Assembly (NCBI GenBank): GCA_965218585.1
Contig: CBDCLE010000026.1
Location: 64,001-128,000 of the forward strand
Length of the DNA: 64,000 nucleotides
Direction: 5' to 3'
From: Terriglobia bacterium
GTDB lineage: Bacteria > Acidobacteriota > Terriglobia > 20CM-2-55-15
Position numbers and translations under genes: made by a program. The number at the start of each line of letters is the position of its first letter. The stretch's first letter is position 1. Below the pieces are notes generated by a model that saw nothing but the letters and a program-made list of their open reading frames with translations, did not search any database and was not told the origin of the DNA. This document shows positions 50,719 to 56,473 of the stretch, piece after piece.

Positions 50719-53018
50719 ATGAAACGGCGTTTCCCAACCATTCTGGGCGTATTTCTCACGCTCCTGTTTGCCTTGCTGGCGGCGAACCGCCTGGACTGGA
50801 CAGCGGAAAGCTTCCTCACCAGTCTGGACATGCGGTGGCTGGATACCAAGTTCAGATTGCGCGGGGAAAGAGCCCCCGGAGATCAACTGGTCCTGGTCGC
50901 ACTCGACGAAAGGTCACTGGAATCACTGGGATCAGCCCGCCTGTTCGAGCGTCATCATGTAGCACAACTTGTCGATCGACTCAATCAGGCAGGCGCCCGG
51001 GTTATCGGCTTTGACATCACCTACAGCGAACCCGACCCCACCAGCCCCGACAACGATCGTCTCTTTGCTGAAGCAATCGAAAGGGCAGGTAACGTGGTCC
51101 TGGGCACCTATTTCGAGCTGGAGGCCACAACCGGACAGAGCGGGGAACGGGGAGAGTTGACGCCGGAGTTCCAGGAAATCGTAATCGAAAAGCAGGTATA
51201 CCCATCGCTCAGAACGAGCGGAACAGAAGGCGGAGAAACGCTTATTCAGGGCAACACGCTTGAAATGAACCTTCCTTCCCTGACCCGGGCAGCGGCTTCA
51301 TTTGGTTCCGTTAACGTTCATACAGATGCTGATGGCTCCCCCCGGTATCAGCCGCAGTTCATCGAATGGGGTGGAAGACTCTATCCTTCTCTGGACCTGC
51401 AACTGTTGAAACGTTACCTGGACGCGCCTTCGGTCGGGGTGACGATGCAAGACGGAAGAATGGAACAGGTGCAGGTCGGCGATTACGTTATTCCGACTGA
51501 CCGCTACGGTCGTTACATGGTCAATTTCAATGGGCCTGCCAACACGTTTCCGACTGTGTCGTGGATTGATGTCGAAGAGGGTCGCGTGGATCCCGGAGCG
51601 CTACGCGACAAGATAGTCCTTGTTGGGCCAACGGCGATTGGTCTGGGCGACGTCCTCCCTACTCCGTTCGACCCGGTGCTGCCGGGCGTCGAAATACATG
51701 CAAACGTCATCGACAACGTGCTCGAGCAACGCTACCTGGTGCGCGACACAATGACCTCCATGGTTGATCTGCTCCTTATCGTGGGCCTGGGTGTCCTCGT
51801 ATCTCTGTATCTCCCGAAGATGGGAGCGACTCGGAGCATCATCTCCACGGTAGTGGGGTTGCTCGCGTTCACAGGGCTGAACGTCTGGGTCTTTCTGCAG
51901 TTCACCTGGGTGTTGAGTTACGTGTATCCCGGACTGGCCTGGTCGTCACGAGCGGGTCCCTGATTTCTTACAAGTACCTCACTGAGGAACGGGAAAAGAA
52001 ACGGACTAAACAGGTCTTCTCGCACTATCTCGACCAGGCGGTTATCGACCAGGTCGTCGACCAACCCGAGAAGCTCAAGCTGGGTGGCGAAAAACATAGC
52101 CTGACGGTTCTGTTCTCCGACATTCGTGGCTTCAGTACATTCTCGGAAAAGATGACGCCTCAGGAACTGGTCGGTTTCCTCAACACCTATTTCGACCAGA
52201 TGACCAACATCATTTTCAAACACCAGGGAACGCTGGACAAATTGATCGGCGACGCCGTGATGTGTTTCTGGGGCCATCCCATCGAAACAGAAGACCATCC
52301 ACTGCGTGCGACCGTGGCTGCATTGGAGATGATGGATGTCGTCCATCAGATGCAGGAAACCGTTCGGCTACCCGGAGGGCATCTCTTTGACATCGGCATC
52401 GGTGTCAACACCGGAGATACGGTCGTCGGCAACATGGGCTCCCAGAACCGATTCAGCTACACCGCAATGGGCGACGACGTGAACCTTGGATCGCGGCTCG
52501 AAGGTCTCAATAAGTTTTACGGTACGAACATCCTGATTACCGACAGCACCTACCTCAAGGTACGGGACCGAATCTTCTGCCGGGAATTGGACAGGGTTAA
52601 GGTCAAGGGCCGGGACCATGCTGTAACGATCTACGAACCCCTCGGGCTACACAAACCCGAGCAGGAACAGCGGGTGTCGGACCGCCGAACCGATCCGACT
52701 CTCTGGAAACGATTCAAGGGGGCATATTCCAACGCGAGACACGGCGAACGGCGGCGCGGCGCGGACCGGCGCCAGGGATCGGCGGAACTGATCGTCGACC
52801 CGAAATGGGAAGAGATCCGCACGATCTTCGAACATGGTTTGGAACTGTACCGTGAAGCCGATTTCGACGGCGCGGACCAGGCATTTGACCACGTCATGAA
52901 ACTTGTTCCGGAAGATGGACCTTCGCGTATGATGAAGGCACGCATCGAAAAATATCGCGCGGAGTTCGTCGGGGCAAGGTCGGAGTTCGATCCGATTCAC
53001 AAGTTTGACGAGAAATAG
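50719..53018 (+). CDS. CHASE2-domain class III adenylate cyclase (split by frameshift near 51939)
   Basis: CHASE2 motifs (DERSL, IGFDI, DADG..R, KIVLVG, PGVEIHAN) and TMs; shifted frame gives LFSDIRGFS, DKLIGDAVM, GNMGS..RFSYTAMGDDVNLGSRLEG. Confidence 0.88.
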
Positions 53019-53044
53019 CCTGGAAACAGCTTGGACATAGCCAG

Positions 53045-54662
53045 ATGGACAGCAAGAACCAACATTACTCTCTGAAGGCAGTCGCGTTGGGGACCGCCGT
53101 GTCGATGCTGTTGGGTTCGTTTCCTCTGGATCTGGGAGCAGAGCCCGGGGACATCGTCGGGGACATCGTTCTCCTCGGTACAGTTGAGAGATCTGGTCGG
53201 CGTCTCACTAATGACGCAACGCTTTTCGAAGGCGACACTATACGAACAGCTTCGTCGAGTGGCGGCGTACTTCGCCTCGGGGGAGCCCGTATGGAAATTG
53301 GGCAGTCCACCTACCTGGAAATAGTTCGTGCCGAGCCTCTGACGATCACACTGAGTTCCGGTTCGCTTGCTTTCAATTTTCCTGACGAGTTCGATTTCGA
53401 GATTACGACGCCGCAACTCGAAGTTCGTCCGAACCCCGAGTCTCGGGCGGTTTCGGGAGAAATTCTCGCTATCCCGGAGGACGAAGACCGCGTAGAGAGC
53501 CGTAGCGGCTCCCTGAGCATCCTTGAAAGACAGGAACATGGTGCGATGCGAAGTGTGAACGGAGGAGAAATCCTGATCGCATCGTTAGTACCCACGGTCT
53601 CCATCCCGGTTGCCAGCCCCACGTTTGCGCCACTGCAGGCGCCAACCCCTATCGCCCAATTCCAGGCCGTTGAAGGGGACGTCCGACTCCAGCGCGTTAA
53701 TACCACCCTGACGACACGTGTTGAGAATCCAGGCATCGCTTTGTTCAACGGCGATACCGTGAGCACTCTTCAAGGTCGGACCGATATCCTCTTCACGGAT
53801 CAAAGCCTGATCAGTCTTGACGTGGGCACCACGGTCACGCTCGAAGAGCAACCCCAGCCTACCGGCATCTTTCGTCGGATCACGCAGGGCTTGGGTAACC
53901 TCTTCTTCGACATCCAGGAGGTTGTGGGAACCGAAACCTCACTTGAAACACCGACAGCGGTGGCAGCCATAAGAGGAACAGAAGGTAACCAGATTGTCCC
54001 CAACGAAACTCAGAGCACACACGCGCTGAATGAAGGACTGGAAGACATTACTGAGCGGATCACACAGCAGACCGTCACGATAACCGACGGCCAGCAGGTC
54101 ACGGCGATTCGGGGTGTCGGTTTCACACCCATCGTCGCCCTGTTAGCCCTGATCCCCAGACCGGGCATAGGCGGGGGCGGCGGCGCGGCGGGCGGGGGCG
54201 GTGCGGGCGGGGGTGCTGCAGGCGGCGGTGCGGGCGCGGGGGGGCGGTGCGGGCGCCGGCGCGGGTGCTGGTGCGGGCGGCGCGGCCGGTGGAGCGGCGG
54301 GCGCAGCTGCCGGAGCCGCGACGTCCACGGTAACTTCTGTCGCCTCTGTCGCAGCAGCGACGGCAGCTACGGCGGCGGGTGTTACAGCTGCCGTTGTCAT
54401 TCCAACCACAAGCGACGAACCCGCCCCCGAAGACTCAGCGACCGTACCGCTGAGCCGGCCGGGAGGCGAACTTACGACCGGAGGCGAACTCACTGCCGCA
54501 CTTTCCGTACCGATCGCCAGCCGACGAGGCCCACCACCCGCCAGTGCATCCGCACCCGGACGGCCTCTAGGTCGACCTCCTGATCGGTCAGACGGACCAC
54601 CAGGACAGCAGGAGGGTGGACCACCGGGACAGCCGGAAGACAGACCTGTCGGACGACCATAG
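53045..54662 (+). CDS. Exported protein with two FecR-like domains and Gly/Ala/Pro-rich tail (frameshift in G-run near 54240)
   Basis: LFEGDTIRT...ITTPQ and LFNGDTVST...LETPTAVAAIRGT; tail continues in the 54201..54662 frame. Confidence 0.75.
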
Positions 54663-54789
54663 AAAACGAGTTGCAGTCAGTCCACGCCTGACTTAACACA
54701 GACTGCGCAAACCAGCCCGGACTGCATCCGCAGTTCAATGTTTGAACCAACCTGTCAGATCCGCCATAGGCGGTAGAATGACCAGCTCT

Positions 54790-55299
54790 ATGTTGAAAGA
54801 TCACACGGACACACTGAGGAAGGGATATCCGGCGCCCGAATTCGAGCTACAGACGGCGAACGGGGAAAAATTCGCCAGCAAGGATCTCAGGGGGAAGAAG
54901 TCGGTGGTGTTCTTCCTGCGGGGGACCTGGTGACCTAACAGCAGAAAGCAACTGACTCAGTTGGAGTCAGATTGGGACGAATTTGATCGAAAGGGCGTGG
55001 GAGTTGTCTGCATCGCAGCCCAGAAGATTGATGGCATGACAGGAGCGAAAAAATTCGTAGAAAAACACAACTACAGGTTCCCGATCCTGTTTGACGAGAC
55101 GCGTGAGGTAACGAAAGCCTACGGCGTATATCACCACGTCGGCCTGGATGCCTATCGCATCGCCCACCCTTCGGCATTCATTCTTGATCCCGAAGGGGAA
55201 ATCCAATGGATCGCCGTCAGCCCGAACCAGGTCGAACTGCCTCAGAACTCAAATATCTTCGAAACCATTCAAGCTATCGAAGCCGCCGGTAAATATTGA
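54790..55299 (+). CDS. Peroxiredoxin-like (AhpC/TSA) selenoprotein with Sec at UGA 54931-54933
   Basis: ORFs 54742-54933 and 54961-55299 are in frame: APEFEL..VVFFLRGTW-U-PNSRKQL..FPILFDE..AYGV..PSAFILDPEG; UGA occupies the CxxC position. Confidence 0.85.
54949..54974 (+). promoter_or_regulatory. Candidate bacterial SECIS element
   Basis: CAACUGACUC-AGUUG-GAGUCAG(A)UUG; apical loop begins 25 nt after the UGA, with GU at loop positions 2-3. Confidence 0.7.
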
Positions 55300-56473
55300 A
55301 ACCCACTTTGAAGGAATCTGTCCCGTTCACCGTGTACTGAGCCGTCGTCAAGGGACGGGCGGTGGAGAGAACGAACTCAAAGGTGTGCCGGAAGGTAGCT
55401 TTCTGAACGCCCACCGAAACGGCCGGCCGATCGAATATCTCTCCGGTAAATCCCTTCACACGAGGCACATACTCTCCTACTACCGAGACCGACGGGGTGA
55501 GTCTCACGCCTGCACCCACACCGATCGCGGCCGTGTAGTCAAACTCTTCTCCGAAGAGAAACTGTGACGGCAAAAAGGTGTCGTCGTTCCGCGTATTGAA
55601 GGCAATACTGGGCGCAACGGAAAGCGAAAATCGGTCTCCGAAGCTTCGTGTCGAAACAAACTGCACAAACGGAGCAAACCGATCCCGAAAGTTATTCCGG
55701 CCTTCGATTCCGACGCGAAGCTGTGTAGACAACGGGGTTTCGGAACTCTGTTGGGAAAGTTGGAACTGCGAACTGAGTTCTATGGTCCGGTCCAGATTGC
55801 TGCGCATCGCCGAAACGCTCAGTCGATCGGTTAACCCCACCTGAACGCCAAATGTCACAAGCGCGCTGCTATCGAAACCAAACAGGTTTGCAGGCGAATC
55901 CCGGTCAAAGACAGGGAACGTGAAACGATGTCCGATCAGGAACTCTACACCTCCACGCTCCATTCCCTTACCGTTGGGCAGATTGACGATCCGCGGACCG
56001 AAGAAGGCACCTTCCGAGGTGAAGGCGTCCACTGGGCTGGTGGGTACAGGGGCAACCACCGGCGCCTCGATTGCCACCTGAGGCTGGCTAATCACTCCCC
56101 CCACGCTTCTCGCCCCAAGATCCGCCAGGTACTGCTCACCGTCCACTTCCACAACCAGCCGAGCGTTCTCGGGATCCGAAAAATGCAGAATCGTCGCATC
56201 TCCCAGTGGCGCCTGGTTGTACGTGAAACGGTCCGGAAACTGGGAACGCAGCAAGGGTGTGATTGTCATCTCGCTCTCGGCGAAGGCCAGACCAAATTCG
56301 TTTCTCGGCCCTCCACCATTCGGGTTGATGTGACACACACTGCAACTATCAACACCGGGGTTGCGGAAGGGATCAGCCTGATAAATCTGGAGGAACGCGG
56401 GAAAGGCGGATGCCGGCACCGACCAGACGACGAGGAACATCAGAAATATTATGCTTCTACCGGTTCGAGTCAT
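55274..56473 (-). CDS. Signal peptide, monoheme cytochrome c motif and DUF5777-like outer-membrane beta-barrel
   Basis: CSVCH-INPNGGGPRN; FLIGHRF, LFGFDS, TFRHTFEF and terminal VGFNIYR beta-strand. Confidence 0.7.
   Translation of the reverse strand: MTRTGRSIIFLMFLVVWSVPASAFPAFLQIYQADPFRNPGVDSCSVCHINPNGGGPRNEFGLAFAESEMTITPLLRSQFPDRFTYNQAPLGDATILHFSDPENARLVVEVDGEQYLADLGARSVGGVISQPQVAIEAPVVAPVPTSPVDAFTSEGAFFGPRIVNLPNGKGMERGGVEFLIGHRFTFPVFDRDSPANLFGFDSSALVTFGVQVGLTDRLSVSAMRSNLDRTIELSSQFQLSQQSSETPLSTQLRVGIEGRNNFRDRFAPFVQFVSTRSFGDRFSLSVAPSIAFNTRNDDTFLPSQFLFGEEFDYTAAIGVGAGVRLTPSVSVVGEYVPRVKGFTGEIFDRPAVSVGVQKATFRHTFEFVLSTARPLTTAQYTVNGTDSFKVGFNIYRRLR

Follow-up and report, generated by a model that had tools for sequence, protein, structure and literature searches.

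The window, i.e. the whole stretch of 64,000 nucleotides that was analysed, derives from a Terriglobia genome assembly of 4.55 Mb (26 contigs, 95% complete) and carries on its forward strand a reading frame (54790-55299) that is open over 169 residues once a TGA at 54931-54933 is read as selenocysteine (Sec, U48). This TGA is the only interruption of the frame, which is terminated by a second TGA at 55297-55299. The nucleotides surrounding the internal codon are TTC TTC CTG CGG GGG ACC TGG TGA CCT AAC AGC, giving U48 the protein context FFLRGTW-U-PNSRKQL. In the translation table 11 listing the same frame appears as two ORFs, 54742..54933 (63 aa, ending in RGTW) and 54961..55299 (112 aa, with a TTG start); an earlier note on this DNA had taken these for one frame broken by a single TGA in RGTW-TGA-PNS, and both the sequence and the ORF listing agree. 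An alternative in-frame ATG lies at 54778, four codons upstream of 54790, and the start at 54790 was favoured because the orthologues begin at the M of MLKDH or MFKDH (M[LF]KDH). The features of the locus are as follows:

54790-55299, forward strand: predicted selenoprotein gene, 169 residues (U48) plus stop TGA, encoding a 'Prx-like' redoxin of the AhpC/TSA type
54931-54933, forward strand: predicted Sec codon TGA (U48), at the nucleophile position of a thioredoxin-type U/CxxC motif and at the TGA column of the orthologues
54940-54942, forward strand: AGC codon of Ser51, replacing the second (resolving) Cys, as placed by the codon and by the ResA and Prx alignments
54952-54970, forward strand: bacterial SECIS hairpin, 7-bp stem and AGUUG loop, within the coding sequence for LTQLES
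54949-54974, forward strand: possible, weakly supported lower extension, in which CAA 54949-54951 pairs with TTG 54972-54974 below the SECIS stem and A54971 is bulged

The translated frame contains the AhpC-TSA domain (PF00578; Pfam score 103.9 bits, cut-off 26, E = 7.5e-30), and Redoxin (PF08534) was matched at 4.5e-23. AhpC-TSA_2 (PF13911), at 25.2 bits, fell just short of its cut-off of 27, with residues 57-113 aligned to positions 1-54 of the 114-position model. None of the NCBIfam models scored over its cut-off, including the selenoprotein-specific ones, of which the SelL-related and WAxxUGC models were far below. The best NCBIfam score was that of ResA (72 vs a cut-off of 170), and the peroxiredoxin models scored 56.6 vs 140 (BCP), 41.7 vs 272 (AhpC), 35.3 vs 270 (PrxU) and 28.8 vs 260 (PrxQ). 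Among PDB sequences the top match was ResA from B. subtilis (3c71; 4.8e-14), whose CxxC aligns residue-by-residue with U48..S51 and whose segment LPTTF, which we take to be the cis-Pro loop of the thioredoxin fold, aligns with the HP(S/A)AF motif of the protein. An AlphaFold (AF2) model obtained from a 35-sequence alignment (pLDDT 90.9) was closest to archaeal Bcp4 (TM 0.82/0.88) and AhpE, followed by ResA (0.60-0.69 / 0.73-0.82). Although the ResA/TlpA proteins supply the best sequence match in the PDB, the NCBIfam score is below cut-off, the predicted structure is nearer to Prx/BCP, and the membrane anchor is not evident: inspection of the N-terminus, MLKDHTDTLRKGYPAPEF, revealed no hydrophobic segment, signal sequence or anchor. 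The protein is probably cytoplasmic, given that no signal peptide is evident.

True peroxiredoxins share the fold and the Pfam family with the window protein, among them a Sec-containing TxxU peroxiredoxin of the same genome (C25:160441-160761), but the active sites are out of register. In BLASTP alignments against three peroxiredoxins of this genome (two TxxU, one TxxC), U48 fell on the Thr of TxxC/U and S51 on the peroxidatic Cys/Sec in all three. Because of these alignments and that with ResA, the Sec was assigned to the exposed N-terminal nucleophile position of a thioredoxin-type motif, and the resemblance to peroxiredoxins was confined to the fold. The description 'peroxiredoxin-like' in the earlier note therefore holds for the fold and fails for the active site; judged by alignment, the motif is of the thioredoxin type.

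Conservation of the TGA was assessed in a set of 61 genomes, consisting of this genome (G000) and 60 relatives. The best 24 matches (E <= 2.8e-29) each contained exactly one TGA; two came from this genome, and the remaining 22 were spread over 21 others, namely G050 and 20 of the 34 genomes of the same family. The TGA occupied the same column in 22 of 22 extracted loci, with UPNC or UPTC in 20 of them and UPNS in the window and in L028 (from genome G001), although many of the orthologue-bearing genomes are close kin and such counts overstate independence. SelA was detected over cut-off in 19 of the 21 other genomes with an orthologue; G019 (88% complete) yielded pieces only, and none was found in G015 (81% complete). 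A scan of GTDB species genomes returned 75 loci, and at the 74 covering the column there were 13 TGA codons, 60 TGC/TGT codons and one Thr codon (a true Prx). All 13 TGA loci were titled Acidobacteriota, Terriglobia, Solibacteraceae or Ca. Sulfopaludibacter, and only one of them (L068) was new, since the other 12 repeat genomes of the 61-genome set. Metagenome contigs contributed a further 80 loci, comprising 67 with TGA (all UPNC), 12 with Cys and one without the column. The relatives had been said to read RGxW-C-PxC, and RGTWCPNC was indeed found in 13 of 13 full-length metagenomic Cys homologues (46-61% identity); likewise, the proposed search for homologues with Cys or TGA at this column recovered many TGA forms with conserved downstream coding alongside the Cys forms. 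In the GTDB scan the RGTW-U-PNC subfamily was almost confined to Acidobacteriota/Terriglobia. Among 1.84 billion representative proteins, 283 matched at E <= 1e-10 and only three at E <= 1e-30, so that the subfamily is narrow. Most database relatives are fragments of 104-114 aa that begin just 3′ of the TGA and carry the JGI label 'peroxiredoxin'.

Those fragments, together with the treatment of the locus by gene callers, would be expected if the TGA were a true stop, whether a nonsense mutation, a sequencing error or the mark of a decaying pseudogene, with the two ORFs as remnants or the 112-aa ORF alone being made. The assembly also has indel-type breaks, namely a frameshift in a second copy of the gene on contig C13, a split SelA and a one-base difference from read contig X1 at 54681. 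We nevertheless consider a true stop highly improbable. The TGA column recurs throughout the 22 orthologues and the 67 metagenome loci, and the homologues that lack it have Cys there. A 112-aa product would miss both the active-site motif and the strands with which the predicted fold begins. Furthermore, contigs from four runs have the TGA, the codons upstream of it are under purifying selection as are those downstream, and a covarying hairpin accompanies only the TGA forms, as described below.

The earlier note had called for the TGA to be confirmed in reads, and assembled read contigs from four runs keep it among the differences listed. A Logan contig (X1) compared with 54600-55310 differed by no listed substitution and by a single inserted base, which follows position 54681 and precedes the gene; this contig may come from the source sample of the window and hence would not be independent. 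Contigs from three other studies (X2, X5 and X7) carry a ∼93% identical allele in which, among the differences listed, the TGA, the AGC Ser codon and the hairpin are unchanged. At least 28 differences of the X2-type allele fall in the coding sequence, with 17 at third, six at first and five at second codon positions. A further 18 differences were unlisted in these comparisons (about 13 in X1 and five in the X2-type allele); those five probably lie near the ends of the pieces but could in principle touch the TGA. No RNA runs were listed for this stretch. Estimates of dN/dS ranged from 0.08 to 0.63 on both sides of the TGA (44 codons before, 84 after) and from 0.15 to 0.24 on both sides within the genus, including UxxS vs UxxC comparisons, with dS saturated in several of the pairs. 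These ratios point to purifying selection on both flanks of the TGA.

Downstream of the TGA, a 7-bp hairpin with an AGUUG loop had been proposed at a distance of 25 nt, and its coordinates agree with the sequence. The arms CTGACTC (54952-54958) and GAGTCAG (54964-54970) form a perfect 7-bp stem around the loop AGTTG (54959-54963), and the TGA-to-loop spacing is 25 nt. The constraints on bacterial SECIS elements given in the Fig. 2 legend of PMC13188914 are a loop of 3-9 nt, a stem of 4-16 bp, a spacing of 16-37 nt, a G in the first two loop positions and a minimum free energy <= -7.5 kcal/mol. The window hairpin lies within all of them, with a 5-nt loop in which G is second and followed by U, 7 bp, 25 nt and -9.0 kcal/mol for the hairpin alone. 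A single-sequence fold of 60 nt gave -13.5 kcal/mol (z = -1.25), and 21 of 200 shuffles folded equally well. As this is not beyond chance, the case for the element rests on comparison with relatives. An Rfam scan of 54700-55400 (E <= 10) returned no SECIS model, only two chance-level matches to miRNA and snoRNA models.

RNAalifold recovered the same 7-bp helix from the 22 orthologues, and across a covariation set of 89 sequences (71 distinct) 93.6% of 497 cells were paired. Among the 71 distinct sequences, pair 22-40 was C-G in 31, A-U in 22, U-G in four and unpaired in 14, while pair 25-37 was A-U in 36, G-U in 32, U-A in two and G-C in one, and was never unpaired. The covariation score was reached by none of 500 shuffles, slid registers paired in 19-37% of cells, and loop positions A29, G30 and U32 were invariant in the alignment. 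Five to seven of the seven pairs were present in 80 of 80 Sec loci vs four or fewer in 69 of 72 Cys loci. The peptide encoded at the hairpin site is RKQLTQLES in the Sec form but KKLMxRL in the Cys clade closest to it. Judged by these comparative data, the hairpin lies far beyond chance. For the lower extension, the three pairs were kept in nine, 20 and nine of the 22 orthologues (13, two and 13 unpaired), which makes only the middle pair a general feature. No such hairpin follows the stop TGA at 55297.

The competing hairpin CAACUG-ACU-CAGUUG that the earlier note allowed for does exist in the sequence (54949-54954 with 54958-54963). In the main family 84.8% of its cells were paired, but 61 of 500 shuffles matched that score, and pair 19-33 was unpaired in 11 of 22 orthologues and pair 22-30 in seven of 22. 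It was thus set aside, the covariation belonging to the preferred hairpin. RNAfold prefers the competing register in the distant UxxS locus L068.

The genome was considered for selA, selB, selD and tRNA-Sec, as had been suggested, and all four are present. The tRNA-Sec scored 73.2 bits (gathering cut-off 47) and was called SeC(tca) by ARAGORN. It was the only UCA-anticodon tRNA among the matches examined, the other near-threshold matches being ordinary Ser, Leu, Arg, Thr, Tyr and Gly tRNAs. SelA, SelB and SelD scored 484, 376 and 356 bits (cut-offs 268, 242 and 125, respectively). In this assembly SelA changes frame close to its C-terminus, a break that would impair Sec synthesis if real rather than an assembly indel. 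The SelD gene itself carries an in-frame TGA, and at least six further thioredoxin-fold TGA genes occur in the same genome; together these show that this Terriglobia lineage uses Sec widely.

The same inventory bears on the idea that the UGA is read through with another amino acid, by near-cognate Trp, Cys or Gly tRNAs or by an unusual suppressor tRNA. No specific observation speaks for it; its basis is a report of odd tRNAs in Acidobacteria (PMC5389517). With a complete Sec pathway and tRNA-Sec as the sole UCA-anticodon tRNA found, we regard such read-through as very improbable, the more so as plain suppression would need no conserved SECIS-type hairpin and the column alternates only with Cys.

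From the observed gene structure, TGA conservation, SECIS element, Sec machinery, fold and motif homology, we infer that selenium is incorporated at U48. In all likelihood, the locus is a single intact selenoprotein gene for an AhpC/TSA-fold redoxin in which UGA 54931-54933 is recoded to Sec via the SECIS element. SelB with Sec-tRNA(UCA) would recode this codon under the direction of the coding-region hairpin 25 nt downstream, and translation would end at TGA 55297. The Sec insertion proposed in the earlier note is strongly supported by the machinery, the TGA column, the covarying hairpin and the purifying selection. Each refuting condition named in that note (reads, Sec machinery and homologues) came out in favour of this reading.

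Selenoproteins of this kind are already known. 'Prx-like' selenoproteins with a thioredoxin-like UXXC motif have long been described: PMC1088965 counts 22 among the Sargasso Sea sequences, of which 21 have UXXC and one UXC, and gives UXXS for arsenate reductase only. A 'Prx-like thiol:disulfide oxidoreductase' (PF00578; UxxC, UxxU) is entered in the review tables of PMC9312934 and PMC13188914, and the Prx-like family also appears in PMC1088965, PMC1794560 and PMC1976440. The window gene has in common with these UxxC proteins an AhpC/TSA domain with distant Prx homology, Sec/Cys homologue pairs, a coding-region bSECIS right after the UGA and a Sec at the UxxC-type position rather than at that of the Sec-Prx TxxU. 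By comparison with the published description of this family, the gene is placed in a small RGTW-U/C-PNC subfamily of that kind. The window gene differs from the family by UPNS, whereas its orthologues have the UxxC motif (20 of 22, and 67 of 67 metagenome Sec forms). The same review tables list as a predicted selenoprotein an 'AhpC/TSA family / peroxiredoxin-like family protein' (pfam13911, cd02970) with UxxS, crediting the Olavius symbiont study PMC1976440; the name was not found in the text passages of that study that were searched. This family shares with the window protein an AhpC/TSA-type fold and Sec followed by Ser at +3, but the window orthologues are overwhelmingly UxxC, and PF13911 came just under its cut-off, over half the model.

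The tables also give UxxS for arsenate reductase and a rhodanese-like family. 'Unusual', as UxxS had been called, is thus apt in that Ser replaces the usual second Cys, but UxxS itself already stands in the review literature. Acidobacteria were credited with three selenoprotein families in 2006 (PMC1794560), and no description of the acidobacterial RGTW-U-PNC subfamily was found in the literature searched. With both Prx-like UxxC and UxxS AhpC/TSA selenoproteins on record, the gene is of an already-known kind. It is a real, conserved and mis-annotated selenoprotein gene in which only the Ser in place of the partner Cys is uncommon.

The Ser variant occurred in two of 22 genome orthologues, one of 13 GTDB TGA loci and none of the 67 metagenome Sec forms. 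Its codon is AGC in the window, as it is in a second UxxS copy in the same genome (G000:C13:2534-2995), whose protein is 80% identical and which has an N-terminal frameshift in an A-run. This copy lies within a ∼3-kb segment 92.6% identical to 52822-55808 of the window. The same-genus sequence L028 (G001) has UxxS with a TCA codon, and the distant acidobacterial locus L068, at 41% identity, has AGC. In a quick maximum-likelihood tree (47 rows, motif columns kept in), the window and the C13 copy were sister (93) to a clade (98), L028 was placed amid three UxxC sequences, and UxxS needed three changes. Either codon, AGC or TCA, can be reached from TGC in one or two steps, but not from the other, which fits independent replacements by Ser. 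On this tree UxxS would have arisen about three times; within the genus, one gain plus one reversal may be the alternative. No UxxC orthologue was found elsewhere in G000 or G001, which leaves the UxxS gene as the sole representative in both. Cys forms without a second Cys were also seen, with CxxA in three Planctomycetota loci and CxxY in one, out of 60. The exchange of Cys for Ser is a rare recurrent natural variant for which single-selenol chemistry is plausible. The idea that Cys74 (VVCIAAQ) might serve as resolving Cys instead was rejected: within the genus this residue accompanies UxxC and UxxS alike, it is also present in the closest Cys clade and so does not track Ser51, and it sits in a predicted strand.

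The rarity of UxxS and the frameshift in the C13 copy might be taken to mean that the copy with Ser51, despite Sec insertion, is degraded in function and heading for loss. We judge this unlikely. It is the UxxS gene that alone represents the family in two genomes, and dN/dS between UxxS and UxxC relatives (0.08-0.24) gives no sign of relaxation. Four diverged UxxS sequences, like the X2-type allele, have preserved both the TGA and the SECIS. Furthermore, Ser appears about three times and with different codons (AGC in the window, C13 and L068; TCA in L028), and loss of the second Cys recurs among the Cys forms.

Taking the Ser51 form as functional, the enzyme would work differently from most of its orthologues. 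In those, the Cys at +3 could resolve the reaction intermediate as an intramolecular selenenylsulfide (UxxC); with Ser at +3, the window protein would have to work with one selenol. Attack by the Sec on a disulfide, a peroxide or some other oxidised substrate would leave an Se-S or Se-OH intermediate for an external thiol to resolve, and this thiol would be either of low molecular weight or part of a thioredoxin/glutaredoxin-type partner. UxxT glutathione peroxidases and CxxS/UxxS thioredoxin-fold enzymes use a single-selenol/thiol cycle of this sort, resolved by an external thiol. In GPx (UxxT) and ArsC (UxxS), as in the window protein, Sec comes first in a CxxC-derived motif with a hydroxyl at +3 (motifs as given in PMC1088965), but homology to the window protein is limited to the thioredoxin fold. 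It is possible, although we hold it rather doubtful, that UxxS marks a repeated adaptive switch from a dithiol-type Sec redoxin to a single-selenol enzyme on a Prx-like scaffold, with a GPx-like site (Sec first, hydroxyl at +3) and a new substrate or reductant; candidates may include a peroxide and mixed disulfides, whether of a protein or of low molecular weight.

The gene leaves the current understanding of Sec decoding unchanged, and its value lies elsewhere. It and well over a hundred relatives are kept in public sets in the truncated 'peroxiredoxin' form described above, and reading the TGA as Sec restores the full redox protein in annotation. The natural UxxC/UxxS pairs of the same genus, 70-73% identical to the window protein, offer a test of what the resolving Cys contributes. 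The 71-sequence alignment also provides a case in which an RNA hairpin dictates the choice of amino acids (Q-L/M-T/A/S-Q-x-E-S).

With respect to the neighbourhood, no functional link between the gene and its neighbours was seen. Many Sec-form loci share the same gene order, with a FecR-like gene, this gene, a convergent DUF5777 beta-barrel and an MPG glycosylase in succession. Of 21 loci from relatives, 14 have DUF5777, full-length in 13 and partial in one; L068 and the 10 Cys-form loci searched (L069-L078) lack it.

Beyond the UxxS gene in the window, six more AhpC/TSA-type genes were found in the same genome (G000), each with one TGA lying in frame at its active site:

AhpC/TSA-type genes of G000 with a single in-frame TGA (contig: coordinates, strand)
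C25: 160441-160761, minus strand
C26: 346391-346693, minus strand
C17: 5518-5826, minus strand
C12: 184078-184392, minus strand
C2: 101961-102206, minus strand
C2: 341012-341410, minus strand

Half of these encode TxxU peroxiredoxin-type motifs (FTPVU, FTGGU and FTPGU) and the other three UxxC motifs (WUPYC twice and TUPFC). An in-frame TGA is also present in SelD of G000, and a search of related genomes returned many redoxin matches that likewise carry one TGA. The Terriglobia lineage to which G000 belongs looks rich in selenoproteins.

The selenoprotein gene itself has a second copy on another contig of G000:

C13:2534-2995, second selenoprotein copy, inside segment C13:552-3507

This segment of ∼3 kb is 92.6% identical to window positions 52822-55808 and takes in the selenoprotein gene together with the 3′ parts of its FecR-like and DUF5777 neighbours; the remainder of the 14.9-kb contig has no synteny to the window. 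The TGA, the AGC serine codon and the identical hairpin are all retained in the copy, although an A-run around codon 27 carries a frameshift. Either a paralogue or contamination of the bin could account for it.

Among the Sec machinery genes, SelA is split over two frames:

C2:238246-239591, minus strand, SelA of G000 (outside the window)

Its profile match covers model positions 1-415 in one frame; positions 407-454 are matched in a second frame. SelA is in a single frame in all four same-genus genomes. The split is due to a 1-base indel close to the C-terminal end, which is either a genuine frameshift or a mistake of the assembly.

Some homologues depart from the family pattern:

JBPCNK010000045.1, L068:3142-3207, distant UxxS orthologue (RGIW-U-PNS)
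Ga0310345_10207333, L136:601-1052, metagenome relative, 69% identity

For L068, RNAfold prefers another register with a 3-nt loop (CCAGCUG-GUC-CAGUUGG), and only 5 of 7 pairs of the family hairpin are kept. In L136, a TAA/TAG stop takes the place of Trp immediately ahead of the Sec TGA (FLRGT*U), possibly reflecting a pseudogene or a read error. Among Cys forms, the second Cys is absent from three Planctomycetota MAG loci (L090, L094 and L106), where the motif is CPNA or CPSA, and from Virgibacillus oceani (L102), where it is CPIY. The resolving residue is repeatedly lost outside the Sec forms as well.

Two genes flank the selenoprotein gene in the window:

53045-54662, plus strand, FecR-domain ORF, passing into a Gly/Ala-rich low-complexity stretch
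55274-56473, minus strand, convergent DUF5777 beta-barrel gene, 399 aa

The 399-aa product matches the DUF5777 membrane beta-barrel domain (3.5e-31) and has an apparent signal peptide and a CSVCH motif (CxxCH haem-type). The 3′ end of its gene overlaps the last 26 nt of the selenoprotein gene, which is probably why the terminal GKY-TGA and the bases beyond are conserved; among 21 loci of relatives, 14 have a DUF5777 gene beside the orthologue, full-length in 13 and partial in one. On the upstream side, an X1 contig, possibly from the source sample, shows an inserted C after 54681 relative to the window; in contigs from three other studies (X2, X5 and X7) the additional base is a G after 54682. 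One base is probably missing from the window at 54681-54682, an intergenic position upstream of the selenoprotein gene, which fits an indel-prone assembly. A second listed ORF (54201-54662) overlaps the end of the FecR-domain ORF in another frame and looks like an indel-type gene break of the kind mentioned in the earlier note.
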